Below are positions 42,602-56,118 of a stretch of 64,000 nt of DNA, piece by piece. Origin of the DNA: an uncultured Rhodospirillaceae bacterium (lineage in GTDB: Bacteria; Pseudomonadota; Alphaproteobacteria; UBA7887). The stretch's first letter is position 1. Every line of letters begins with the position of its first letter. The position numbers and the translations under genes are program-made. Location of the stretch: positions 13,719-77,718 of the forward strand of contig CAZEWK010000089.1 in NCBI GenBank assembly GCA_964515905.1. Direction: 5' to 3'. Below the pieces are notes generated by a model that was given only the letters and a program-made list of their open reading frames with translations, ran no database searches and was not told the DNA's origin.

Positions 42602-43432
42602 ATGACTAATCAAATGCGGAATAATGATAGCCAACCCGATTTGACAGGCTATTGGGGACATTTAACCACTACGGACTTTTCTACCTTAAACCCCGAGGAA
42701 ACCATTGCCCTACTCCCAGTAGCAGCCATCGAACAGCATGGGCCGCATCTACCACTTGAGACGGATGCATGCATAAGTGAAGGCTTGGTCAAAGGCCTTT
42801 TGGGCAGAAGCCATGATCGTCTAACACTCGTTAGCCTGCCGCCGATGGTTATCGGCGATAGCACAGAGCACATTGATTATTCAGGAACACTCTCAGCTAA
42901 CACCGAGACACTAGTCAGTCTGTGGTCAGGTATCGGCAAGCAAGTGGCCAAATCTGGCATTCAAAAACTACTAATCCTGAATACTCATGGAGGGCAACCG
43001 CAAATCGTGGACATAGTAGCACAGCGTCTTCGTGCCCAGGATAAAATGCTGGTAGTTGGGGTGAGCACCTTTAAGCTTGGCATTCCTGAAGGCCTATTTA
43101 ATACTAAAGAACTTCAGCATGGGCTACATGGGGGTGAAATAGAAACATCACTCATGCTCTTCCTTAAGCCAGAATTAGTGCGCCCAAACCGGGCAAACAA
43201 TTTTATTTCATCATCTTGGAAAATGGAAGAAACATACTCCCGCCTTTCGACAAACGGACCGGCTGCATTTGCTTGGCAAGCACAAGACTTGCACGAATTG
43301 GGAGTGGTGGGCGATGCAGCAAAAGCCGACGCCAAGCGTGGGTCCAAATTGTTTGAATTCTTGTTGGATGAAATATCTCTTATTTTGAGGGATATGAGAC
43401 AGTTCCCCATATCTGATTTGAAGAATGTCTAG
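42602..43432 (+). CDS. creatininase-family amidohydrolase
   Basis: 276 aa. ...AIEQHGPHLPLETDACISEGL... and ...LNTHGGQ...GGEIETS match the creatininase/ArfB/MftE family metal-binding motifs. Confidence 0.75.
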   Translation: MTNQMRNNDSQPDLTGYWGHLTTTDFSTLNPEETIALLPVAAIEQHGPHLPLETDACISEGLVKGLLGRSHDRLTLVSLPPMVIGDSTEHIDYSGTLSANTETLVSLWSGIGKQVAKSGIQKLLILNTHGGQPQIVDIVAQRLRAQDKMLVVGVSTFKLGIPEGLFNTKELQHGLHGGEIETSLMLFLKPELVRPNRANNFISSSWKMEETYSRLSTNGPAAFAWQAQDLHELGVVGDAAKADAKRGSKLFEFLLDEISLILRDMRQFPISDLKNV

Positions 43433-44246
43433 TCAGACTTTGATTGACGTTGAGGGTGCTTGGACGCTCCTGCTGCAATATCTAAACGGAACATCTCAAA
43501 ACATTTTGGACATCGACGAAACGGGCTCATGGAATATTATACGAGGCCTCTCAGACGCAGCCGAAGATTTAATCCGGTTATACGGACCCTTAGTTGCAAA
43601 ACAGAGAAACCGATCGCTGATTGTCGCGAATCTGGGACAGAGTCTGGACGGATATATCTCTACCAACAACGGTAACTCATATTACGTCACTGGCAAGGAA
43701 AGCATTATTCATCTTCATCGAATGCGCGCCTTATTTGATGCAGTTATAGTAGGAGCAAATACAGTTGATGCAGACAATCCAAAACTGACAACACGACTAG
43801 TGAGCGGCAATAACCCAACCCGCGTCGTTATAGACCCAAACCGTAAATTAAGTCCTTCCCACCAAGTGTTTACTGATGAATCAGTTGCTACTGTTTTGTT
43901 GTGCGCCCAAAACCTAAAGCAAAGAAATTATCCTGCTTTGAAGAACGTTGAAATTCTTGAACTGCCCAACACCGACGAAGGTATCTCTACTAAGGATTGC
44001 ATTGATGCATTGGGCTCACGAGGGCTACATCGTTTGTTCATAGAGGGTGGTGGCATCACCGTGAGCCGTTTTTTTAATGCGGGTGTCCTTGATCGGCTTC
44101 ATATCACCGTTGCCCCCGTAATGTTTGGCGCAGGCAAGGTCGGAATCCAACCCACGGCTGCAATAAATCCTGGTAAGGCCTTTCGTGGAAAGCACTGCAG
44201 AACTTTTCCACTCGGGGACGATATTTTGTTTGATTTCGAATTTTAG
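43425..44246 (+). CDS. RibD C-terminal-domain (pyrimidine reductase/DHFR-like) family protein
   Basis: 273 aa. ...IVANLGQSLDGYIST... and ...LFIEGGGITVSRFF... match RibD_C reductase motifs. Has a ~60 aa N-terminal extension. Overlaps the creatininase gene by 8 nt. Confidence 0.7.
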   Translation: MSSQTLIDVEGAWTLLLQYLNGTSQNILDIDETGSWNIIRGLSDAAEDLIRLYGPLVAKQRNRSLIVANLGQSLDGYISTNNGNSYYVTGKESIIHLHRMRALFDAVIVGANTVDADNPKLTTRLVSGNNPTRVVIDPNRKLSPSHQVFTDESVATVLLCAQNLKQRNYPALKNVEILELPNTDEGISTKDCIDALGSRGLHRLFIEGGGITVSRFFNAGVLDRLHITVAPVMFGAGKVGIQPTAAINPGKAFRGKHCRTFPLGDDILFDFEF

Positions 44247-44274
44247 GAAGTAAGCCCAATCCTGATATTATCAC

Positions 44275-45129
44275 CTACCAAGAAATGGGCCACGCCCACA
44301 AATCTGTATGCCCAACATCCAATTGAGAATGGCATTGCTCAATTGCTGTGAGTCGAAATTTCAACCAGTCGCGAGTTTCCTGACTTTTGTCCACCAGACC
44401 CATCCAATCTTTGATAAGTGCTGTTTGAAGATCCAAATCGGCTTTTCCCAATGCCCAAGCACTTGGGGCAGTTATAACGTCGTATCCTGCGTGGCGAAGT
44501 GCACACTCTAATACAGAGACAGCACGTGACCCAAGCCCCTCTCCAAAGCCTTTATCTCGACGTTGATCATAATTTAAGGCGTCTAGGACCAGTGAGTCTG
44601 TGGGGTGAGCTGGGCCAAAAGTTACACAGCCGTTGTAGTTCAGGCACGCGTATACACATGCTTGAGTCTCAGAACACCAATCTACAAACTTCATACACCA
44701 ACTAGCGGAGACCAGGTCTAAAAAAGCGGAAACAGTTACTAAATCAATCTCTGAAGGTCTGTCCCCAAAGCCTCTTGATAAATCACAATCATGGAAAGTT
44801 AACTCATAATCTTTGTCATCACCGTATATCTCTAGGCGATCTGGGGCTATCTTTGTCTGCAAGCCATTTTGTTGGCCCCACTTACAAAGGTTAGTTTTTG
44901 CTGCCGCAAGCAATGAGTCTGAGTGATCCATGAGTCTCCATGACTGCCCTAATCCCAAATAAGGGGCCAATGCCCGGATACAACTTCCAGTGCCAGAGGC
45001 TATGTCAATGGCCGAAATATGATCGAAGTGTTGTGACCAACAGTGCAGAACCGCTAATAGGTCTTTGTTGCGTGCACGAGAATCTGCTGGTTCACGTAAA
45101 TTTAACCAGTCAACCGTAAACCCACTCAT
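44275..45129 (-). CDS. class I SAM-dependent methyltransferase
   Basis: 284 aa, DIASGTGS motif I-like glycine-rich segment. Last gene of a four-gene minus-strand operon, overlapping the glycosyltransferase stop. Confidence 0.55.
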   Translation of the reverse strand: MSGFTVDWLNLREPADSRARNKDLLAVLHCWSQHFDHISAIDIASGTGSCIRALAPYLGLGQSWRLMDHSDSLLAAAKTNLCKWGQQNGLQTKIAPDRLEIYGDDKDYELTFHDCDLSRGFGDRPSEIDLVTVSAFLDLVSASWCMKFVDWCSETQACVYACLNYNGCVTFGPAHPTDSLVLDALNYDQRRDKGFGEGLGSRAVSVLECALRHAGYDVITAPSAWALGKADLDLQTALIKDWMGLVDKSQETRDWLKFRLTAIEQCHSQLDVGHTDLWAWPISW

Positions 45130-46271
45130 TAACCAACCGTCTCAAGAAGGAATGCCTCCATTTGGTAAACCACCTTTTCCCATGATCTTTGAGTCCTTCT
45201 GCAACCCCTTGCTCCCTCTGTCAAGCGGCAGCGCAACCGAGGTTCGTGAAAAAATCGACTTAATGCTGAAGCGAAGGCCCTACTATCACCGGCGGGAACC
45301 AACAAACCTGCCTTCTGAGGGACAGTCTCAATTATTGCTCCGGCGCTAGTCGCTACGATTGGTATTCCTGACCCCAAAGCCTCAGCCAAAGCCATCCCAT
45401 ATCCTTCATGGTATGACGCAAGCACGAACAAATCGGCGGACCGAAGCGCATCTCTCATTTTTGATACATTCAAGTTTCCTAGAAAATTAATTCTATCGCG
45501 AATGCCGAGTTTCGTAGCACAATTTTTCACTCGAATACTTGTTTGCTTATCCCTATCTAGATCACCTATACAATCTAGGTTCCAAGGAACCTCCTGAAGA
45601 GAGGCTAATGCATGCAGCAATACTTCATGCCCTTTCCGCGGTATTAATGTGGCGATACACAAAAGATTGAATGAAGCCTTATTAGATCCTATAGAGACAG
45701 GCATTTTCGCTATCCCCGGCTCGATAACCTCAATAGAAGCTGGATTCACATAGTACTCTTCTATTAACATCTTGGCAGTTACTGCGCTGGTTACCGAGAT
45801 CTGGGAACACACGGAAAGAGCCACCTGTTCTAACTTTTTAAACTGCAGTTGCTGAGCCAACGTTAGTCCAGTTTCCTCCGCCACAGGGTGATGAACTAAG
45901 GCGACTATCCTCAATCGTTTTGAAGCCTTACAAAGCTGACTTGCTAGTGGTGCCAACGCAAGCCCATCAATAACGACTAGACTATGATCTGGAATTTTTT
46001 TAATTATTGAATAAGCGTATTCCAGGTCATGGTCCGACGGGAATGGAAATCTTGCTGATAGGGAATGAAGACTCACATGCCACTTCTGGGCAGACAATCC
46101 GTTAATGATATGCTTGTCATAGATATACCCGCCTGTGAGAGCATCGATATTACCTGGTATAATGAAGTGTATCTGCCGCAAATTGTCTGCTCCTACACAA
46201 AACGAAGATGCATGCCTGTACCGAGAAGGTCCAACCGCTTGTACATACGCCCATCCGTCGGCCAACCTCAA
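45129..46271 (-). CDS. glycosyltransferase family 4 (GT-B, group 1)
   Basis: 380 aa. [20 protein letters not shown] is the GT4 E-x7-E donor-binding motif. Confidence 0.8.
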
Positions 46272-46675
46272 CCATTAAGTAAGGCACCTTCGTAGCGCGC
46301 CCATGCCACGTGTGATTCATGCAGTGTCACCGAAATCGCTGTCAGGCCTGAGGCATCCGCCCCCAAGTCTCCTTCACTAACCTTTTTAAATAATCTAGAA
46401 AATATCACTTCAGCTAGAACTTCGGTGGTAGTGTTCCGATCAGCAAGCGACGGGTCTTCATCCAAGTTTCGATAATTTAACTCTTCAAGGACCTCCGCTA
46501 AAGCGGCGGAAGCTAATCCAATATCTATCACCAAGCCGTTATTATCCAAAGTCGGTCGACGAAATTCAACGTCAACCACATATGTAGCGCCATGCAGGCG
46601 CTGCGCGGGCCCAAACACGGCCCCTTTAAAACTATGTGCAATCATAACATGATCGCGGACCGATACGGTGTACAT
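46268..46675 (-). CDS. 6-pyruvoyl-tetrahydropterin synthase/QueD-like protein with degenerate active site
   Basis: 135 aa. Aligns to E. coli QueD (AAHRL / IAHSF; CGRLHGHSF / AQRLHGATY; TSEVLAKWIW / [10 protein letters not shown]). The catalytic Cys and one zinc-ligand His are replaced by Ala. Confidence 0.7.
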
Positions 46676-46687
46676 CAGCCTTCTCCT

Positions 46688-47698
46688 CTAAACGTGATCA
46701 TCATACTGAGCAACGACCCCCGAATACGTCACACAATGACAAAGCTCTTGGTTGGTTGGCAGAGTAATTCGACGCATTGTTTCTGGTAGTTGTTCAAACT
46801 CACTATGGCCAGAAATCAGTTGATCCAGTATGTCGTCAGCAAGAAGATCAAGCGCCAAAGATAAACGTCGGCGATAATCCCAACGGGATCTCTGGGTAAT
46901 CCCGACCTGCCCAACTTGTGAAGATTGCAACCTAAGTCGCTTGGAGTGAAACCCTTCGCCCAAGGGTAACTTCACAGTTTGTTTTCCGAACCAACTCAAC
47001 TCTAGAATTGTCGCCTCTTTTCCCGCCAATTCAAGTGCCAGATGCAATCCCTCCTGCGACCCAGAAGCGTGAATCACCATGTCACCTGATCCTGAGGCAT
47101 TTTTGGCTTCAGAGAACTTAACGCCCAAAGCACTGGTAACATTTTTCTTACATGGATCGATATCGACCATCAGCACCCGGGTTCCTGGAATCTGGTTAAC
47201 GAGGTACGCTGCCAGGCACCCAATGACGCCAGCGCCAACGACTATCACATCTGAACCAATTGCCACCGGGGAGTCCCAGAGACCATTAATAGCAGTCTCC
47301 ATGTTGGCCGCCAAAATTGCACGACCCTTGGGGACATTTGCTGGGATCGGCACCACGGATTCCTCTGGCACAACGTAAAAATCCTGGTGTGGGAAAAGGC
47401 AAAAAACAGCCCGATTTAACAAACTAGCCGGGCCCTTCAATACAAGCCCGACATTCGAGTATCCATATTTCACTGGTCCTGGGAAGTTTCCCTCCTGAAA
47501 CGGAGCACGCATAATCTGATGCTGGCTGGCTGGAACGTTACCCTTATAGACCAGACTTTCGGTTCCCCGGCTAATACCACTAAACAGTGTTTGAACCAAA
47601 ACCTCCCCTTCCCGAGGCTCCACCAATGGTGTTCGGAGTATCTGACCGTTTCCAGGTGCTTGCACCCAAAACGCGTGGGCATAAAGGGCCGTGGTCAT
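46688..47698 (-). CDS. medium-chain dehydrogenase/reductase, BchC-like subfamily lacking canonical zinc ligands
   Basis: 336 aa. FSGISRGTE and YGYSNVG sit where Zn-ADHs have CxxC and GHE. GAGVIGCLAAY Rossmann motif. Confidence 0.65.
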   Translation of the reverse strand: MTTALYAHAFWVQAPGNGQILRTPLVEPREGEVLVQTLFSGISRGTESLVYKGNVPASQHQIMRAPFQEGNFPGPVKYGYSNVGLVLKGPASLLNRAVFCLFPHQDFYVVPEESVVPIPANVPKGRAILAANMETAINGLWDSPVAIGSDVIVVGAGVIGCLAAYLVNQIPGTRVLMVDIDPCKKNVTSALGVKFSEAKNASGSGDMVIHASGSQEGLHLALELAGKEATILELSWFGKQTVKLPLGEGFHSKRLRLQSSQVGQVGITQRSRWDYRRRLSLALDLLADDILDQLISGHSEFEQLPETMRRITLPTNQELCHCVTYSGVVAQYDDHV

Positions 47699-47846
47699 AT
47701 TTTGATGCTCCCTAAACGGGTTCTAAATCGAACAGAAAAGTATATGATTGCATAAACTACAACATCTTGCATTGCAGGAGTTACACTCTCCATTCTCTTT
47801 GCCTAGAGCCTAAAATGAGAAACCCCCTGGTAGTTCTACACGTGAA

Positions 47847-48611
47847 ATGCAGAAAACACGATCTTCCTTAACTAAATTTACTACTAGCACCATTTGTCAT
47901 TTGATCGCTGCTGCTGCAACGACTGTGCTTACCACAAAGCTATTAACGTTAGGGAAAAGTACTCAAATTTTTGCCCCCCTGCAGGTGCTAACTGTGTTTA
48001 TCCTGATAGTAGGTACAACACTCCTACAAGCAAGAAAACACCCGCTGCCAGACTCCTTTGGGATCGCCAATCGGGTTACATTATTCCGGCTCAGCTTAAC
48101 GGCCGTCCTCGCAAGTCAGATTGGCATCGCCGCAACCCTTCGCCCTAGTGAACTTTGGTTTTTCGTTTCACTGGCTGTAATCGCACTTTTATTTGATGCT
48201 GTCGATGGGTGGCTAGCCCGCCGCTTCCATATTCAAAGCACGTTCGGAGCAATATTTGATCTAGAAGTTGATGCTTCTTTCATACTTGTCTTAGCAATAA
48301 TAGTATTCGAACTTGGAAAAGTTGGGCCCTGGGTTCTTTTAGTGGGAGCCATGCGTTACCTGTTTGTGGTGGCAGGGTGGAAGATTCGTAAACTCCGGAG
48401 ACCATTACCTCCAAGCCGAAGGAGGCAAGTTATTTGCGTAGTACAAGCTATTAGTTTGATAATAATTTTGTGCCCTATTACTAGCGCCGCGCTAGCTACC
48501 ACAATTATACTCTTCTCCCTTCTGCTCTTACTTGTCTCATTTTATCAAGATATTTATTACCTCCTATCCACCGAACGAACCATGGAGGCGTGTTGTGGAA
48601 ACACCTCGTAG
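47847..48611 (+). CDS. CDP-alcohol phosphatidyltransferase family protein
   Basis: 254 aa. DAVDGWLARRFHIQSTFGAIFDLEVD is the D-x2-DG-x2-AR-x8-G-x3-D-x3-D motif. Multi-TM. A second family member beside pgsA, so substrate is unknown. Confidence 0.75.
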   Translation: MQKTRSSLTKFTTSTICHLIAAAATTVLTTKLLTLGKSTQIFAPLQVLTVFILIVGTTLLQARKHPLPDSFGIANRVTLFRLSLTAVLASQIGIAATLRPSELWFFVSLAVIALLFDAVDGWLARRFHIQSTFGAIFDLEVDASFILVLAIIVFELGKVGPWVLLVGAMRYLFVVAGWKIRKLRRPLPPSRRRQVICVVQAISLIIILCPITSAALATTIILFSLLLLLVSFYQDIYYLLSTERTMEACCGNTS

Positions 48612-49206
48612 GATTTATGTTGCCACCGTATTTTTAATAACCATTGCAACAACTTTTATCTTAACGATTACTAGTCTTAAAGCAGAACCCTTAGATTATG
48701 TGATCGACCCAGAGCATTTTAGTGTGGGCTTTTTAGTTGACCATATCGGCTATGCGAAAATCCTGGGGATGTTTTTGAAAGCGGAGGGGCGTTTTACCTT
48801 TGACGAGCAAGAACAGTCCATCACAAATCTGTACGTTCAAATTGATACCATGAGTGTATTTACCAATCACAAAAAAAGAGATAGCCATTTACGAGGTCCG
48901 GATTTTTTAAATGCACGTGAGTTTCCGGTGATGACATTTAAGGGAGACTTAATTGAACAAACAGGCGCTAAAACTGGAAAGATTATCGGTCCTCTATCTT
49001 TGATAGGGCAATCGTTTCCTTTAACTTTGGATTTTACCTGGAACAAAAACGAGATCTATCCGTTTGGACACCGTAAACCTACCATAGGTATTTCTGCACG
49101 AGGCACCTTCCGCCGAAGCGCTTACGGCATGAGCTATGCGGTAGGAAATGGATGGGTAGGCGACAATATTGACATAATCATTGAATTCGAGGCCTACCAG
49201 AAGTGA
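48532..49206 (+). CDS. YceI-family periplasmic protein
   Basis: Signal-like N-terminus plus YceI domain (DPEHFSVGF...TFDEQE...). Start uncertain: ATG at 48532 overlaps the upstream gene by 80 nt, and an in-frame GTG near 48594 is an alternative. Confidence 0.7.
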   Translation: MSHFIKIFITSYPPNEPWRRVVETPRRIYVATVFLITIATTFILTITSLKAEPLDYVIDPEHFSVGFLVDHIGYAKILGMFLKAEGRFTFDEQEQSITNLYVQIDTMSVFTNHKKRDSHLRGPDFLNAREFPVMTFKGDLIEQTGAKTGKIIGPLSLIGQSFPLTLDFTWNKNEIYPFGHRKPTIGISARGTFRRSAYGMSYAVGNGWVGDNIDIIIEFEAYQK

Positions 49207-49226
49207 CGGGTCTGACCTACTAGCAA

Positions 49227-50846
49227 ATGGTCAACTGGAAGAGATTTGCTGGGATTTGTGCCGCTTTAATAATCCTTAATGCGTCGCTGAGCTTCCACAA
49301 TATTTGGCCAACACCCTGGATCTACTTGAGGCCTGAATTATCTGTTGAAGCAGCAATGGTAATACTTCTGATATGTACGTATACCAGTGCGTTTAAAAAA
49401 TCTATGGGACAACGAATGCGACTTTGTTTGTTGATATTCGTTCTTATCCTTGTTCTTGGACGTTACCTCGACGTCACAACGCCTTCCCTCTTTGGAAGAC
49501 CTCTTGATCTCTATTGGGACGCCCAACACGTACCTCGCATTGTCGCGATGATTTGTGACGGCAGAACCACCGCATTTATTTTTGGAATAGGGGCACTGCT
49601 ATTGGCAGGTGCTGCTTGTATTGCTTACACCGCGTCATGCTCACTGCGCTTTCTTTGCCTATCCACAGAAACTAAAAGAGTCCGCATTGCATTGTCGTGC
49701 CTATCCCTTTTTATATTAGGACTTTACGCTGCAGGAATGGGCAATCGGAGCATTCAAACCGAACGATGGTTTTCTATTCCAGTAGGTTACATGTACATTG
49801 AACAGCTCAACACAATCTACGAGTCTTTGTACGACCATACCCCAGTTGAAATTGCCGCCCCTGCCCACATTAATTCGGACCTAGGTCGGCTACATGGTCG
49901 AGACATGTATCTGTTTTTCGTAGAATCGTACGGCTCGATAGTATTCGATGATGGTGAATTCATTCCACGCTTAAAACCAGCCATAAAAACTCTGGACGAA
50001 AATATGGAAATATATGGATGGGTGGCCGCGACCGGGCTTTATGAAAGCCCGACTTTTGGCGGGGCTTCTTGGTTGGCACACGCAACTTTGATGACAGGGA
50101 ATTGGACAAAAAGACAACAGGATTACAAAGCCCTGATGAGCAGCAAATTTCGTAGCTTAACAACATACTTCCAGGAGGCAGGATATCGCACAGTAGCACT
50201 TATGCCTGGCTTAAAAACACTATGGCCCGAGGGAACATTTTACAAATATGATCAAATTTGGAATGCCAGCCAACTCAAATATATGGGACCTGATTTTGGG
50301 TGGTGGCGGATTCCAGATCAGTACAGCCTGTCTTATTTATACGATACTGAAATAGCACTCTCAGACCGACCCCCATTATTTGTTTTCTTTGCATCTATTT
50401 CTAGTCATATGCCATTTACTCCGCTCCCCCCTTATGAAGAAGACTGGTCGCAGGTACTATCGGATTCTCCGTATGATATTGCTCATACGAACGTTGATAA
50501 TAGCTACTTGATCGAAGCAGATACTATGCGTCTCGCATACGAGCGAGCAATAAATTATGAGATCCATTTGCTAGCAGGGTTTTTAAAAAAGGTCGCGCAT
50601 CAAAAGCCTATGATAATAGTGCTCGGCGACCACCAACCTCCAGCAATAGTATCTGGGAGGAATACACCATGGCTGGTTCCAGTTCATGTGTTTACCCAGA
50701 ATACTGACCTTTTAGAACCCTTTATTGACATCGGATTTCGGCGTGGGCTTCTACCACCGAGCAACCCATTGGGACGTTTGAGTTTTTTACATAAAATAAT
50801 CCTGGAAGGCTTCGACACAAGGTGGCAAGCCAAAACAAATGATTAG
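49227..50846 (+). CDS. membrane-anchored alkaline-phosphatase-superfamily transferase (LtaS/EptA/OpgB-like sulfatase domain)
   Basis: 539 aa. About 5 N-terminal TM helices, then a soluble domain with LFFVESYGS and C-terminal IIVLGDHQPP motifs, as in phosphoglycerol/phosphoethanolamine transferases. Confidence 0.55.
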   Translation: MVNWKRFAGICAALIILNASLSFHNIWPTPWIYLRPELSVEAAMVILLICTYTSAFKKSMGQRMRLCLLIFVLILVLGRYLDVTTPSLFGRPLDLYWDAQHVPRIVAMICDGRTTAFIFGIGALLLAGAACIAYTASCSLRFLCLSTETKRVRIALSCLSLFILGLYAAGMGNRSIQTERWFSIPVGYMYIEQLNTIYESLYDHTPVEIAAPAHINSDLGRLHGRDMYLFFVESYGSIVFDDGEFIPRLKPAIKTLDENMEIYGWVAATGLYESPTFGGASWLAHATLMTGNWTKRQQDYKALMSSKFRSLTTYFQEAGYRTVALMPGLKTLWPEGTFYKYDQIWNASQLKYMGPDFGWWRIPDQYSLSYLYDTEIALSDRPPLFVFFASISSHMPFTPLPPYEEDWSQVLSDSPYDIAHTNVDNSYLIEADTMRLAYERAINYEIHLLAGFLKKVAHQKPMIIVLGDHQPPAIVSGRNTPWLVPVHVFTQNTDLLEPFIDIGFRRGLLPPSNPLGRLSFLHKIILEGFDTRWQAKTND

Positions 50847-53484
50847 TGAAAGTAAACCCCAGCAGGCCAACTGCGCTAGTATCAAAAACAGCCTCATTGT
50901 TTTCGCAACAGCGTTCGGAAGTCTAGTGGTATGGTACATTTCCCATCCCCATACCCTCATACCAGCATTCAATGACCAAATTAATGCAGTAGCCTACACT
51001 GTACAACAAAGATGGGAATCGCCTACGGATCAAAGAAGAAACCCAAAATCTTCAATCCAAGACGTCCAACAAATTGCTGGAATAACCGGGGCTGTCAGAA
51101 CTTATACGGTAAGCGGTGGCATAAAAGATTTTATCCAACAGGCAGAGAAAGCTGGACTAGAAATTATAGCTGGTGCTTGGACTGGAGTAGACTCCAAAAC
51201 TGATGGGAAAGAACTTTCCGCCCTTATACAGGTTGGGCGTTCCCAACATAATATTAAGCGTTTGCTAGTCGGAAACGAAGTTTTGCTTCGTAATAATCTC
51301 TCGCCTAGTCAGGTTCAAAAATACATCGAGGAGGTTCGAATAAAGACAAAAAAACCAACTAGCGTTGCTGAGCCATGGCATATATGGCTCGCAAACCCCA
51401 CACTAGCCGACAGCGCCGATTTCCTTGCTGTACATATCCTTCCCTACTGGGAGGGAATATCGGTCGAACAAGCAGTGCCCTACATAGATCAAAGATTGAA
51501 GCAACTTCAGAATACTTATCCTGGAAAACCAATTCTTCTGGCTGAGGTGGGATGGCCTTCTGCAGGGGATTCCCGCGGCGACGCAAAGGCTTCCAAAACT
51601 AATCAAATATTTTTTGTCCGCACATTTGCGGCGTACGCAAAGAAACATAACATTGATTACGTGTTGCTCGAAGCTTATGACCAACCATGGAAAGCTCACA
51701 TTGAAGGCCAAGTGGGTTCCCACTGGGGCCTGTTTGACGCACATAGAAACCCTAAATGGCCCTTGGCTGGCAGCCCGATTTACAAAAATTTATACTGGCT
51801 TCCTTGGGCTTTATTAGCATCCTTCTTTGCCACAGTCGCCCAGTTTATTTACATCCGCCAGTGGCCACAAATCAAGGTGTGGAAAGCTGTACTAATAGGA
51901 GTGTGCTTTCAAGCATGGGCTGTCGGGCTGATATGGCCATACATGGCACTGACCAATCACTATTTAACCCAGCTGGGTCTTATCGTATGGATCACCCTAA
52001 GTGTATCCCAACTTATACTATTTCTACTTCTTGCGACTGATTTAGTTGAATTTGTAAACGTACTGTGGCATCGGCCACATCGATGTCCAACGTCACAAAT
52101 TATAACCAAAGACATTGAAACCTACTTTGTGTCAATCCATGTTCCCTGCAGTGGCGAGCCATTTGAAATAGTATCTCAGACCCTTACTGGATTATCACGT
52201 CTTGATTATCCGAACTATGAAGTAATAGTGATCAGCAACAACTACCAATCTCCGGGTCGATGGAAACCTATTCAGAAATTATGCTTGCATTTGGGTCCTA
52301 AATTTCACTTCGTACATCAAGATCATTGTCCTGGATACAAAGCTGGAGCACTCAATCTTGCAGAAACTCTTACCAACGTTCGTGCTGAGATTATCGCTGT
52401 AGTGGATTGTGATTATGTCGTTGAACCTAATTGGCTACGAAGCCTAATGCCCATTTTTAAGAGTCCGGATATCGCCATTGTGCAGTCTCCGCAAGATCAC
52501 GTTGCTTCGAGCGAAAATAAGTTCCAAAAAAAATGTTTCTGGGAATATGCCGGGTTTTTCCAAGTTGGAATGATCCAGCGTAATGAGGCAAATGCAATAA
52601 TTCAGCATGGAACCATGACATTGATTCGCCGATCTGCACTTGCGCAGGTGGGTGGGTGGAGTGAATGGTGCATCACTGAAGACGCAGAACTCGGTCTTCG
52701 TTTGCTTGCCGCAGGTTGGAACTCCTTATATGTCCCCAATTCATTTGGTCGAGGCTTGTTACCATCCGATTTTAACGCATACAAAACTCAACGCTTTCGG
52801 TGGACATATGGAGCGATGCAAATTCTACGCCGGTTTGGTCCGGAATTACTCGGTCTGAGAAAGAGTCGTTTACGGATGCCGCAAAAATATCATTTCCTCG
52901 CAGGTTGGATGCCATGGCTAGCAGATGCCGTTGGTTTTATTTTTACGTTAGCAGCGGGTGTGTGGACGGTTACCATGATTATATTCCCGGACCAGTTTGG
53001 CCCCCCGATAGAACTATTTTTAATCCCAGTTTTAGTCGTATTTGTATTACGTCAACTTCGCGACTGGATTCTTTATGCAGTTAGGGTAAAGTGCTCCCTT
53101 AGGAACAGCCTATATGCCGCTATAGCAGGCCAATCACTAAAGTACACAATTGCCCGTGCAGTACTAACTAGTGTTTTTAAAAAAAACATGCCTTTCCAAA
53201 AAACACGAAAACAATGGTCTTTTTTAAGTCCTTTTCAGGCCTTGATGACGTCTGTCACAGAGACTTCTATGTTTCTAGCAATCTCCTGTATTTTAGTCGG
53301 TTTCTGTCTGCACTGTGATCTGAGCGACACAACAAATATATTGTGGATTTTCATACTAATAATACAGACAATGCCATACCTAACGTCCTTCCTAATGGCT
53401 TGCAGTGACGCCCTGTCTCGACGGCGCATGCCCCCAAACCAAACGGGGATTGCACAAATTGAATTACCTACCCACACTAAGTAA
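50839..53484 (+). CDS. ndvB: bifunctional GH17 glycoside hydrolase / GT2 glycosyltransferase (NdvB-like beta-1,3-glucan synthase)
   Basis: 881 aa. N-terminal GH17 motifs LLVGNEV and ILLAEVGWPSAG. Central TM helices. C-terminal GT2 with DCD, TED and QRFRW motifs. This matches the Pseudomonas/Bradyrhizobium NdvB architecture. Confidence 0.7.
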   Translation: MISESKPQQANCASIKNSLIVFATAFGSLVVWYISHPHTLIPAFNDQINAVAYTVQQRWESPTDQRRNPKSSIQDVQQIAGITGAVRTYTVSGGIKDFIQQAEKAGLEIIAGAWTGVDSKTDGKELSALIQVGRSQHNIKRLLVGNEVLLRNNLSPSQVQKYIEEVRIKTKKPTSVAEPWHIWLANPTLADSADFLAVHILPYWEGISVEQAVPYIDQRLKQLQNTYPGKPILLAEVGWPSAGDSRGDAKASKTNQIFFVRTFAAYAKKHNIDYVLLEAYDQPWKAHIEGQVGSHWGLFDAHRNPKWPLAGSPIYKNLYWLPWALLASFFATVAQFIYIRQWPQIKVWKAVLIGVCFQAWAVGLIWPYMALTNHYLTQLGLIVWITLSVSQLILFLLLATDLVEFVNVLWHRPHRCPTSQIITKDIETYFVSIHVPCSGEPFEIVSQTLTGLSRLDYPNYEVIVISNNYQSPGRWKPIQKLCLHLGPKFHFVHQDHCPGYKAGALNLAETLTNVRAEIIAVVDCDYVVEPNWLRSLMPIFKSPDIAIVQSPQDHVASSENKFQKKCFWEYAGFFQVGMIQRNEANAIIQHGTMTLIRRSALAQVGGWSEWCITEDAELGLRLLAAGWNSLYVPNSFGRGLLPSDFNAYKTQRFRWTYGAMQILRRFGPELLGLRKSRLRMPQKYHFLAGWMPWLADAVGFIFTLAAGVWTVTMIIFPDQFGPPIELFLIPVLVVFVLRQLRDWILYAVRVKCSLRNSLYAAIAGQSLKYTIARAVLTSVFKKNMPFQKTRKQWSFLSPFQALMTSVTETSMFLAISCILVGFCLHCDLSDTTNILWIFILIIQTMPYLTSFLMACSDALSRRRMPPNQTGIAQIELPTHTK

Positions 53485-53531: not shown

Positions 53532-54635
53532 ATGAAAGTTGACGGCACTCACTATCAAACAATATGGGTCCATGATGATGGCTGGCGCGTCAACATCATC
53601 GACCAAACGAAATTACCTCATGAGTTCAACGTCACCACCCTATCCTCCTCATGTGAAGTAGCCCATGCTATTCGTACAATGATGGTGCGTGGCGCGCCAT
53701 TAATTGGTGCAGCAGCGGCGTTCGGTATTTGTCTAGCCATGCGGAAAGACCCCTCCGACGACAATTTAGAAGATGCATCCAAATTGCTTTTAGCTACAAG
53801 GCCAACAGCCATTAACCTACATCATGCTGTCCATGAGATGCGGGCGAACTTGCTATCCATTAGGGAACCAGAACGAGCAAACACCGCATACAGAATGGCA
53901 GAAAATATTTGTTCAATCGATATAAAAACGAATCGAGCAATTGGTGAACATGGCTTCCGAATCCTGAAAGGCATTTCCGAAAATAAACCAACAGGTGTTC
54001 CGGTGAATATTTTAACCCATTGCAACGCCGGGTGGCTTGCTACAGTCGACTGGGGCACGGCCACTGCGCCAATATACACTGCTCATAGTGCGGGCATTCC
54101 AATTCATATCTGGGTGGACGAGACACGACCCAGGAATCAGGGCGCTGCGCTAACCGCCTTCGAATTTTTGGAACAGGATATCCCACATACAGTTATCGTA
54201 GATAATGCCGGGGGACATTTAATGCAAAATGGACTGATTGACCTTTGCATTGTTGGAACAGACCGGACGACGGCAACTGGCGACGTAGCGAATAAAATCG
54301 GTACTTATTTGAAGGCCCTCGCAGCCAAGGACAACAATATTCCTTTCTATGTAGCACTTCCTTCTTCCACTATAGATTGGTCAATAAAGGATGGAATCAC
54401 TCAAATACCCATTGAAGAACGCCCACAAGAGGAAGTCCTATACATTAACGGACAAGATGAAACTGGCCGGCTAACCCGAATCCAGATTACTCCGGACGGC
54501 ACGAATGCAGTAAACTATGCCTTTGACGTTACTCCAGCGCATCTAATTACAGGTTTAATTACCGAAAGAGGAGTCGCGGATCCCTCCAAAGAAGGTCTAG
54601 AAAAACTTTTCCCCAAATCAGCTCGCGGAAACTGA
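53532..54635 (+). CDS. mtnA: S-methyl-5-thioribose-1-phosphate isomerase
   Basis: 367 aa, eIF-2B alpha/beta/delta-like. VRGAPLIGAAAAFG and ...CNAG...TGADR... typical of MtnA. Confidence 0.85.
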   Translation: MKVDGTHYQTIWVHDDGWRVNIIDQTKLPHEFNVTTLSSSCEVAHAIRTMMVRGAPLIGAAAAFGICLAMRKDPSDDNLEDASKLLLATRPTAINLHHAVHEMRANLLSIREPERANTAYRMAENICSIDIKTNRAIGEHGFRILKGISENKPTGVPVNILTHCNAGWLATVDWGTATAPIYTAHSAGIPIHIWVDETRPRNQGAALTAFEFLEQDIPHTVIVDNAGGHLMQNGLIDLCIVGTDRTTATGDVANKIGTYLKALAAKDNNIPFYVALPSSTIDWSIKDGITQIPIEERPQEEVLYINGQDETGRLTRIQITPDGTNAVNYAFDVTPAHLITGLITERGVADPSKEGLEKLFPKSARGN

Positions 54636-55336: not shown

Positions 55337-55624
55337 ATGCCCAATAAACTCACTGACGCACAAATCACAGATTCCCTTGCCGAAATAGAGGGGTGGAGAA
55401 GGTTAGAAAACCGTGACGCCATTTATAAGCAGTTTGAATTTTCTGATTTCATTGCCGCCTTTAGTTGGATGCTCCGGGTAGCGATGTTTGCAGAAAAAAT
55501 GAACCACCACCCTGAATGGTTTAACGTGTACAACAAGGTTGAAGTAACTCTTGCGACTCATGATGTCGAAGGGCTGAGTGAAAAAGATTTCAAACTAGCT
55601 CAGCTGATGGATTCAAATAAGTGA
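55337..55624 (+). CDS. phhB: 4a-hydroxytetrahydrobiopterin dehydratase (pterin-4-alpha-carbinolamine dehydratase)
   Basis: 95 aa. ...[41 protein letters not shown] signature of the PCD/DCoH family. Confidence 0.85.
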
Positions 55625-56118
55625 CCAGCCTTGTGAGTAGTAATTTTAAGGACGTCCCACTCGGAATATTAGTCGTTGCCCTGACCGGGTTACTCATCAT
55701 CTATGGATTGTCTTTTTTGATGCTTTTTGGGAAACCAGTGCTGGCTATCAATGCATACCTACAATTGATTTATTTTAGTGTCCTTATTTTAAGTTTTCTG
55801 GGTGCCATCAACTGGGGGCTAGCTATTTCTGCGGAATCACGTGGTATTCGCATTTCACCTTGGTGGTATATAGCTGCTGCTGGACCTACTGCATTAGGAT
55901 GGATAGCTCTTATTCTTATAAGCCCCACTATCAAGATTGTGGTTTTATCGTTAGGATTTTTTAGCTCTTTTATGTTGGATGTAACCGCTTCATCCCGGGG
56001 CTACGCTCCCGTCTGGTATAAAAATCTCAGAAAATTGATGACGACCGCTGTATTAATTGCAATGACTTTGGCGCTGCTAGCTGTTCGACTAACAATCACA
56101 AGTAGTCTCCTAGGTTGA
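55621..56118 (+). CDS. DUF3429-family membrane protein
   Basis: 165 aa, four predicted TM helices. ...[20 protein letters not shown] resembles the DUF3429 core. Start overlaps the phhB stop by 4 nt. Confidence 0.5.

Follow-up and report, generated by a model that had tools for sequence, protein, structure and literature searches.

A candidate three-module envelope locus in an uncultured Rhodospirillaceae bacterium, with an NdvB-type glucan synthase beside an unnamed family of LtaS/EptA-like transferases

The locus considered here occupies about 43.4-53.5 kb of a 64,000-nt stretch of contig CAZEWK010000089.1 from an uncultured Rhodospirillaceae bacterium; this whole stretch is referred to as the window. 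Its rightmost gene encodes an 881-aa NdvB-type glucan synthase and is preceded by genes for a sulfatase-fold membrane transferase (hereafter SULF), a YceI-family protein, and an orphan CDP-alcohol phosphatidyltransferase (hereafter CDPOH). An initial annotation, made from the sequence alone, described these four genes as a self-contained module for making periplasmic glucans and decorating them with phospholipid-derived substituents. The four open reading frames (ORFs) are confirmed at 47847-48611 (254 aa), 48532/48595-49206 (YceI), 49227-50846 (539 aa), and 50839-53484 (881 aa), and every motif quoted from them is located in the translations. Beginning at 47847, the annotation missed a divergent operon at 43425-47698; in distant lineages, no other partner accompanies CDPOH and SULF as consistently. 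The features of the locus are listed below in order of position.

43425..44246, forward strand: RibD_C-type pyrimidine reductase, 273 aa (PF01872, 129.7 bits)
44275..45129, reverse strand: SAM-dependent methyltransferase-like protein, 284 aa (weak Methyltransf_12 match)
45129..46271, reverse strand: GT4 glycosyltransferase, 380 aa (PF00534, 100 bits)
46268..46675, reverse strand: PTPS-IV / SCO6650-like T-fold protein, 135 aa (PDB 3D7J, 7e-48; FGPAQ)
46688..47698, reverse strand: BchC/threonine-dehydrogenase-like MDR oxidoreductase (ADH-like), 336 aa (weak NCBIfam Tdh and BchC matches; PDB MDR, 2e-5)
47699..47846, no strand: divergent intergenic region of 148 bp between both operons (sequence inspection)
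47847..48611, forward strand: CDPOH, orphan CDP-alcohol phosphatidyltransferase, 254 aa, with a PgsA-like fold (PF01066, 62.5 bits)
48595..49206, forward strand: YceI-family periplasmic lipid/polyisoprenoid-binding protein, 203 aa from GTG 48595 (PF04264, 116.5 bits)
49227..50846, forward strand: SULF, about five transmembrane helices and a periplasmic alkaline-phosphatase-fold transferase domain, 539 aa (weak PF00884 match, 30.8 bits)
50839..53484, forward strand: NdvB-type GH17 transglycosylase fused to a processive GT2, 881 aa (Pfam GH17 and GT2)

SULF and ndvB overlap by 8 nt (ATGATTAG), one more than the 7 nt initially given, and 20 nt separate YceI from SULF. The YceI gene most likely starts at GTG 48595, since a GGAGG ribosome-binding site precedes this codon; from there it overlaps the end of CDPOH by 17 nt. 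The 148-bp intergenic region presumably holds the promoters of both operons, and consensus scans for promoters and terminators gave counts no higher than in shuffled sequence. The GC content is even across the locus region. Over window positions 1-64000, a tRNA scan detected no tRNA genes and an Rfam scan gave no matches at gathering thresholds.

The 881-aa protein matches Glyco_hydro_17 (PF00332) and several GT2 models in Pfam. Its GH17 part (residues 75-306) is similar to a Rhizomucor beta-1,3-glucanosyltransferase (PDB 4wtp, 9e-25), and its GT2 part (residues 471-722), which is similar to BcsA (PDB 4hg6, 7e-20), is flanked by transmembrane (TM) segments at 321-399 and 698-852. The motifs GNEV145, EVGWPS236, DCD523, TED613, and QRFRW651 are invariant in 20 homologues, as are the catalytic glutamates E147 and E236 of the GH17 domain. 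This GH17-GT2 architecture returned 7,886 matches at E<=1e-10. Against the P. aeruginosa protein annotated 'ndvB: glycosyltransferase NdvB', identity is 37% at 96% coverage (E = 3e-176), and the likeness to the NdvB proteins of P. aeruginosa (PA1163) and Bradyrhizobium extends to architecture, catalytic motifs, and the full length. The protein is very probably an NdvB, and its initial assignment to the NdvB family stands on the combination of domains, invariant motifs, and full-length homology. The P. aeruginosa family has been proposed to make glycerol-phosphorylated cyclic beta-1,3-glucan (PMC10237404), and NdvB-type glucans bear phosphodiester substituents, namely phosphoglycerol in P. aeruginosa (PMC10237404) and phosphocholine in B. 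japonicum (PMC4881576). For P. aeruginosa, no transferase has yet been assigned to the addition of phosphoglycerol (PMC10237404), and the literature found names none for the phosphocholine of B. japonicum (PMC4881576).

SULF is recognised by its fold rather than by its sequence. Its Pfam match to Sulfatase is weak (30.8 bits) and spans profile positions 74-244 only; no NCBIfam family matches it at E<=0.01, or any of 24 family members at E<=1, and a PDB search with its sequence gave no match. In the AlphaFold2 (AF2) model (pLDDT 86.4) about five TM helices form an N-terminal bundle joined to an alkaline-phosphatase (AP)-fold domain, a topology that was also checked by hydropathy and K/R distribution. 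The top Foldseek matches of this model are LtaP/LtaS, full-length MCR-1 and EptA, EptC, GacH, and PbgA; identities are only 11-18%, and the match reaches into the TM region for MCR-1 (9nww) and EptA (5fgn). The fold thus bears out the LtaS/EptA-like membrane transferase of the initial annotation. Residues E233, T276, S281, H285, H394, D468, and H469 are invariant in 24 sequences, and the metal-ligand positions are equivalent to those of LtaS/LtaP, GacH, and EptA/MCR-1/EptC, enzymes with differing acceptors (lipoteichoic acid, group A carbohydrate, and lipid A). The nucleophile is predicted to be Ser281 rather than T276, because S281 begins helix 281-290 of the model and aligns with the nucleophile position of sulfatases. 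SULF has the TM helices, AP fold, Glu/Asp-His ligands, and predicted hydroxyl nucleophile of the AP-superfamily head-group transferases, and it falls in no curated family of the OpgB/OpgE/LtaS/EptA/BcsG type. It belongs to a separate, unnamed family with about 5,000 word-filtered matches; an exhaustive search gave 2,877 representatives at E<=1e-3 and 1,279 clusters (50% identity) at E<=1e-30.

Among characterised enzymes, OpgB (MdoB) and OpgE of E. coli and CgmB of Sinorhizobium meliloti, which add phosphoglycerol or phosphoethanolamine to periplasmic glucans, resemble SULF in their N-terminal TM helices and periplasmic AP-fold domain; by the same logic, SULF would take a phospho-head group off a membrane lipid and place it on a glucan. 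SULF differs from them in having no detectable membership of their sequence families, in its probable nucleophile (Ser281, not Thr), and in that its gene is paired, often fused, with its own CDP-alcohol transferase; no such pairing is known for OpgB, OpgE, or CgmB. BcsG, the phosphoethanolamine transferase that modifies the cellulose made by the GT2 synthase BcsA, uses bulk phosphatidylethanolamine. It is likewise an AP-superfamily membrane enzyme with a Ser nucleophile, encoded beside a processive GT2 synthase; however, it is not detectably homologous to SULF by sequence, and SULF travels instead with a putative dedicated donor-lipid synthase and head-group pathway. The role of MdoB in periplasmic glucan decoration is also treated in PMC10237404.

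CDPOH carries the signature D117xxDGxxARx8Gx3Dx3D at residue 117, within which D117, D120, G121, A124, R125, G134, D138, and D142 are invariant. Together with its PF01066 score, this motif identifies it as a CDP-alcohol phosphatidyltransferase. It belongs to none of the PgsA, Pss, Pcs, Cls, and PIPS equivalogs of NCBIfam, the best of which (pgsA) scores 28.4 bits against a cut-off of 109.1. The best fold match of its AF2 model (pLDDT 90.9) is S. aureus PgsA (7drj/7drk, TM-score 0.72-0.75), and since PgsA is the nearest structure, the model favours CDP-diacylglycerol as the donor. PgsA and CDPOH have the CDP-alcohol signature in common, but CDPOH has two extra N-terminal helices and a distinct conserved motif, PLPPSRRRQ, in addition to its score far under the cut-off. 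The YceI protein combines its PF04264 domain with a hydrophobic N-terminus that resembles a signal peptide by inspection (METPRRIYVATVFLITIATTFILTITSLKA). Its periplasmic lipid-binding identity stands as first proposed, but it is not a fixed part of a module; it occurs in about 10 of the 80 SULF loci described below and is an optional component.

In the divergent operon, the nearest PDB entries of the RibD_C protein (6p8c, 1e-22; 2azn, 1e-21) are archaeal/fungal-type 2,5-diamino-6-ribosylamino-pyrimidinone 5'-phosphate reductases. The T-fold protein matches SCO6650 (3D7J) at 7e-48 as against 3e-4 for QueD. It contains FGPAQ, the mark of the PTPS-IV subfamily (PMC5445326), and has LHGAT in place of the Cys...HGH motif, with no Cys and with the second His of HGH changed to Ala. 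By the published motif definitions (PMC5445326, PMC5041015) it is a PTPS-IV protein and not a canonical PTPS/QueD (PTPS-I/II/III), which would have the catalytic Cys and a full HGH. The function of the PTPS-IV subfamily is unpublished or unclear (PMC5041015). A canonical biopterin-glycoside pathway, consisting of a PTPS and a pteridine glycosyltransferase, was rejected for this operon on the ground that its PTPS-like protein has neither the catalytic Cys nor a complete zinc motif. The ADH-like protein is a BchC/Tdh-like MDR without the catalytic-zinc Cys (GISRGTE), and homologues of the methyltransferase (MT) are annotated as class I SAM methyltransferases in A. tumefaciens, Rhizobium, and Thiodictyon clusters. 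Taken together, RibA (found in related clusters), RibD_C, PTPS-IV, ADH, MT, and GT4 suggest an aminopyrimidine or pterin-like alcohol made from GTP, which would be reduced or oxidised, methylated, and glycosylated.

SCO6650 of Streptomyces coelicolor (3D7J) shares with the window protein both FGPAQ and the loss of the Cys/His-Gly-His motif. Its structure was solved in 2008, and the structure paper is said to report a pterin-like binding site and neither zinc nor PTPS activity. Its gene context is different, with MEKHLA and cupin genes, and was rejected as a model for the present cluster since these surroundings are unrelated. In Streptomyces anthocyanicus (L179) and S. fungicidicus (L169), the PTPS-IV gene and the SULF homologue are clustered neither together nor with CDPOH, and the Streptomyces SULF homologue stands alone. 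The structurally characterised SCO6650 may work in another context than the proteobacterial cluster.

To define the conserved unit, 80 metagenomic loci with SULF relatives at 34-53% identity were compared, of which 38 extend by at least 1 kb, and 15 (fully flanked) by at least 5 kb, on either side. Every ORF of the window was queried against these loci by targeted phmmer searches and annotated contexts; single-linkage clustering of the raw ORFs around SULF was dropped because it chained into one component. CDPOH lies beside SULF in 30 of the 38 loci. Nine of the 15 fully flanked loci contain CDPOH, ADH-like, PTPS-like, GT4, and methyltransferase genes, and RibD_C is also present in seven; three others have NdvB but not this cluster, and three have neither. 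Over all 80 loci the counts are 36 for ADH-like, 26 for PTPS-IV, 25 for GT4, 24 for MT, 17 for RibA, and 16 for RibD_C, the RibA homologue often being located between CDPOH and SULF. Within the window, only the segment from RibD_C (43.4 kb) to SULF recurs near SULF, with NdvB and YceI doing so less often; creatininase, MtnA, Pterin-4a, and cupin genes do not recur there in the distant loci.

The genes of this unit occur in at least three orders, including the divergent layout of the window and one in which SULF is convergent with CDPOH next to an ADH-PTPS-GT4-MT operon. Moreover, CDPOH and SULF are fused into one protein in at least ten cases (L128, L130, L149, L158, P0225, P0374, P0387, P0404, P0413, and P0414). 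The partnership between SULF and its private CDP-alcohol transferase is obligate-looking. It is highly probable that the two work as a pair, and the PTPS-IV operon probably feeds this pair.

A different picture is obtained from the side of NdvB. Among the 80 most similar NdvB loci of GTDB species genomes (37-56% identity, flanks of up to 10 kb), SULF is present in three (L006, L036, and L054) and CDPOH in one (L006). When the NdvB neighbours were clustered without bias, genuine families reached at most 7 of 79 loci, and the top-ranked 'family' was an antisense shadow ORF. Since NdvB has no widely conserved neighbour, this result agrees with the 'orphan' status of pseudomonad ndvB (PMC10237404). 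In pseudomonads the gene is an orphan between tcdA and dapE without decoration genes nearby (PMC10237404), whereas the window ndvB overlaps the stop codon of a lipid-head-group-transferase-like gene. Close relatives (MarineAlpha metagenome-assembled genomes, NdvB 51-62% identical) keep the whole region, which could be from relatedness alone. A self-contained four-gene NdvB module is therefore rejected: SULF accompanies only 3 of the 80 nearest NdvB proteins, no other partner is conserved, and co-conservation of the neighbours, one of the checks by which the initial annotation proposed to be judged, came out against it when seen from NdvB.

Nevertheless, glucan synthases recur beside the conserved unit. 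In 6 of the 38 loci with enough flank, SULF is immediately followed by NdvB, and on a 2.6-Mb contig (L167) the two are adjacent with no CDPOH nearby. The adjacent SULF-NdvB pairs fall in two well-separated clades in both the SULF and the NdvB trees; therefore, it appears that the pair has been kept through deep divergence at least twice. In a 1,426-aa protein (P0430), a full-length NdvB (38% identity over 882 aa) is fused to a full-length SULF (30% over 533 aa, with its motifs intact), the domain order being the reverse of the gene order in the window. Other synthases are found as well. CDPOH-YceI-SULF is followed by another membrane GT2 in one locus (L092), and a synthase of the unrelated OpgH type sits right next to ADH-PTPS-GT4-MT in Neorhizobium NCHU2750 (mdoH, 2-nt gap) and is divergent from the same operon in Methylosinus trichosporium OB3b. 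In Dinoroseobacter shibae, mdoG-mdoH-cytb lies opposite CDPOH-SULF-flippase. Overall, the fusions and the recurring adjacency support a functional link between CDPOH, SULF, and NdvB, as the initial annotation had supposed. The links to glucan synthases are real but facultative, the three modules being joined pairwise in different organisms. As for the substituent, an ordinary phospholipid head group such as glycerol or ethanolamine is probably not involved; a GTP-derived compound seems more likely, given that CDPOH shares operons with RibA, RibD_C, and PTPS-IV.

The locus can be described, with an even chance of being right, as one end of a three-module envelope system comprising a glucan synthase, a GTP-derived head-group pathway, and lipid-mediated transfer in the periplasm. 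Domain identities, folds, conserved active-site residues, linkage, and fusions are observed in the data, whereas all substrates, the direction of transfer, and the acceptor are proposals. In the first module, the cytoplasmic GT2 of NdvB would polymerise beta-1,3-glucan through its own channel, and the periplasmic GH17 would cut and re-join the chain, cyclising or branching it as proposed for P. aeruginosa NdvB. In the second, the divergent operon would convert a GTP-derived aminopyrimidine or pterin-like intermediate to a modified, glycosylated, and methylated alcohol, the GTP cyclohydrolase II step being encoded inside the cluster in other genomes. In the third, the PgsA-like CDPOH would join this alcohol to CDP-diacylglycerol at the cytoplasmic face, forming a dedicated phospholipid that would then reach the outer leaflet; some genomes have an MprF-type flippase-like gene in the cluster. 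SULF would attack the phosphodiester, probably via Ser281 and a metal held by E233/D468/H469, form a phospho-enzyme, and hand the phospho-head group to a periplasmic acceptor. Since SULF and ndvB overlap by 8 nt, the most likely acceptor here would be the NdvB glucan, although for this organism the matter is evenly balanced. YceI, and cytochrome b561 elsewhere, may be accessory periplasmic or membrane partners. The use of PgsA and OpgB for the osmoregulated periplasmic glucans of E. coli and of BcsG and BcsA for cellulose are parallels to this scheme, which differs from both in the dedicated donor lipid and head-group pathway. In its most specific form, in which the cluster makes a novel phospholipid with a glycosylated and methylated, GTP-derived aminopyrimidine- or pterin-like head group, the lipid carries this redox-active group to the periplasm, and SULF links it through a phosphodiester bond to NdvB or OpgH glucans, the proposal is tentative.

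Several observations weigh against the three-module reading. Within 10 kb, 77 of the 80 NdvB loci have neither SULF nor CDPOH, and neither gene is found in the P. aeruginosa ndvB surroundings (tcdA, dapE). The trees that place the SULF-NdvB pairs in two clades are rough neighbour-joining trees, and the NdvB-SULF fusion is a single metagenomic sequence. In Rhodobacterales, opgGH is adjacent in one of four annotated examples and is not near the cluster in the three other loci; its adjacency was rejected as a general feature of that variant. On the side of the head group, no gene for RibA, the flippase-like protein, or cytochrome b561 is located within the 64-kb window, and sequence matches of CDPOH to CEPT1 (0.0028) and PgsA (0.0076) do not separate its specificity. 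The head-group chemistry is a guess because the PTPS-IV subfamily has no established activity.

Other such observations speak at the same time for a non-glucan acceptor. For most SULF loci, no glucan synthase is encoded within 10 kb (9 of the 15 fully flanked loci have the cluster only and 3 have neither), and in a close relative (L087) SULF is directly followed by mtnA, with no ndvB. In a distant locus (L168, 11736-15224), SULF is followed not by CDPOH or a glucan synthase but by a 1,162-aa AsmA/YhdP-like protein, of a kind associated with inter-membrane lipid transport. Also in favour of such an acceptor, three of the closest folds (EptA, MCR-1, and EptC) belong to enzymes that act on lipid A or LPS. 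The sole expression data, from the distant D. shibae homologues, concern photo-oxidative stress, in which these genes are co-induced with cytochrome b561, and not osmoregulation (PMC4373377). It is conceivable, then, though on balance unlikely, that CDPOH, SULF, and the PTPS-IV operon serve to form or alter a new envelope lipid, or that they modify an acceptor other than glucan (for example LPS/lipid A, a component of the outer membrane, or a protein), ndvB being a mere neighbour under shared envelope-stress regulation in a few lineages. Such a reading leaves unaccounted for the NdvB adjacency kept over deep divergence in two clades, the overlapping stop and start codons of the present locus, the NdvB-SULF fusion, and the OpgH/OpgGH links in three genera.

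Closer to the model of the initial annotation, SULF could be an ordinary OpgB/CgmB-like transferase of phosphoglycerol, phosphoethanolamine, or phosphocholine that uses bulk phospholipid, with CDPOH as a PgsA/Pcs-like supply paralogue and the PTPS-IV operon unrelated. PgsA being the nearest structure to CDPOH, LtaS and GacH being among the nearest folds of SULF, and the phosphoglycerol or phosphocholine carried by known NdvB glucans would all suit this explanation. However, the linkage of CDPOH and SULF to PTPS-IV/RibD/RibA has persisted through three or more rearrangements and is seen in both Alpha- and Gammaproteobacteria, including overlapping RibD-CDPOH and adjacent ribA-CDPOH genes. CDPOH also scores far below the cut-offs of PgsA and all other equivalogs, and SULF matches no OpgB, OpgE, LtaS, EptA, or BcsG model, which makes the explanation quite improbable. 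Finally, export of a soluble pterin- or flavin-like redox compound via a lipid conjugate, with SULF as the releasing phosphodiesterase, YceI/cytochrome b561 using or reducing the product, and no glucan decoration, would suit the recurrence of cytochrome b561 and/or YceI in the cluster, the oxidative-stress response of the D. shibae homologues, and the unknown route of pterins to the periplasm, for which no exporter is known (PMC13259868), but it is very unlikely given that it leaves the NdvB/OpgH linkage and the NdvB-SULF fusion unexplained and that the closest folds are transferases rather than hydrolases, activities which a fold cannot tell apart.

With the three-module reading preferred, what is new here is the SULF family, its pairing with a private CDP-alcohol transferase, and the link to a PTPS-IV pathway; glucan decoration by AP-superfamily transferases was already known. 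No description of the cluster turned up in the searchable literature, in which SCO6650 and SCO6655 were looked for as well. Osmoadaptation, symbiosis, virulence, and the antibiotic tolerance of biofilms all depend in part on periplasmic and cyclic glucans, and the phosphodiester substituents of NdvB-type glucans affect these properties. The SULF family (about 1,300 clusters at 50% identity), tied to glucan synthases by gene order and fusion, is a candidate for glucan-decorating machinery. Three orphans, namely the PTPS-IV/SCO6650 subfamily, an unassigned CDP-alcohol transferase family, and an unnamed LtaS/EptA-like family, would be brought into one pathway. If the most specific form of the proposal holds, it would provide a function for the PTPS-IV subfamily, an enzyme family for glucan decoration, and a lipid-linked route for pterin-like molecules across the inner membrane. 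A pterin-like head group would also bear on how pterins reach the periplasm (PMC13259868).

The cluster is carried by cultivable bacteria such as A. tumefaciens, Rhizobium, Paracoccus denitrificans, D. shibae, and M. trichosporium OB3b. In A. tumefaciens Yub001 (pAt) and Rhizobium sp. SL42, the order is cytochrome b561 and RibD, MT-GT4-PTPS-ADH in the opposite orientation, and then ribA (GTP cyclohydrolase II), CDPOH, (a FkbM MT), an LPG_synthase_TM flippase-like gene, and SULF. All cluster genes of Thiodictyon form one co-directional array in which the RibD stop overlaps the CDPOH start, and Palleronia has a ribA-ADH-PTPS-MT-RibD operon. Cytochrome b561 lies in or beside the cluster in other genomes too. 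A Rhodobacterales variant (D. shibae, Tateyamaria, P. yeei, Alloyangia, and P. denitrificans) lacks the PTPS genes but retains GT4; in it, cytochrome b561 lies opposite CDPOH-SULF-(flippase-like)-ABC transporter-GT4. On Rhodobacterales plasmids (L174-L176, L172), a three-gene ABC importer (binding protein, ATPase, and permease) lies between the flippase-like gene and GT4. This arrangement suggests that PTPS-less Rhodobacterales import the head-group precursor rather than make it. In D. shibae (L172; pDSHI05, NC_009959.1, 13-18 kb), the cytochrome b561/CDPOH/SULF/LPG_synthase_TM genes are Dshi_4166-4170, which are reported to be induced by light and oxidative stress and lie on a chromid needed to survive starvation in light/dark cycles (PMC4373377). 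This response fits a redox-active or protective envelope decoration and is no test of a glucan link.

Further genes flank the locus in the window. A gene for MtnA (S-methyl-5-thioribose-1-phosphate isomerase, 470 bits) is located at 53532-54635 on the forward strand, 47 nt after ndvB; in two relatives (L004 and L005) mtnA overlaps the ndvB stop, and in Rhodobacteraceae SC52 (L181) it is next to RibD, part of an ADH-PTPS-IV-MT operon, and a ribokinase gene lies upstream. A tie of mtnA to the cluster via ribose-phosphate chemistry is possible. A creatininase-family gene (42602-43432, forward strand; PF02633, 207 bits) shares 8 nt with the start of RibD_C and is kept in close relatives only, not in distant SULF loci; its family includes the archaeal FAPy deformylase ArfB, which would suit a GTP-derived pathway. 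A few kb downstream of the cluster, a pterin-4a-carbinolamine dehydratase gene (55337-56118, forward strand) overlaps a DUF3429 membrane-protein gene and is kept in the close relatives L001-L005. The ADH-like gene is whole (336 aa) in the window and in L002, and it is split (130 + 190 aa) at 5850-6860 of L001, another assembly of the same species, where a frameshift, variation between strains, or faulty assembly could account for the split.

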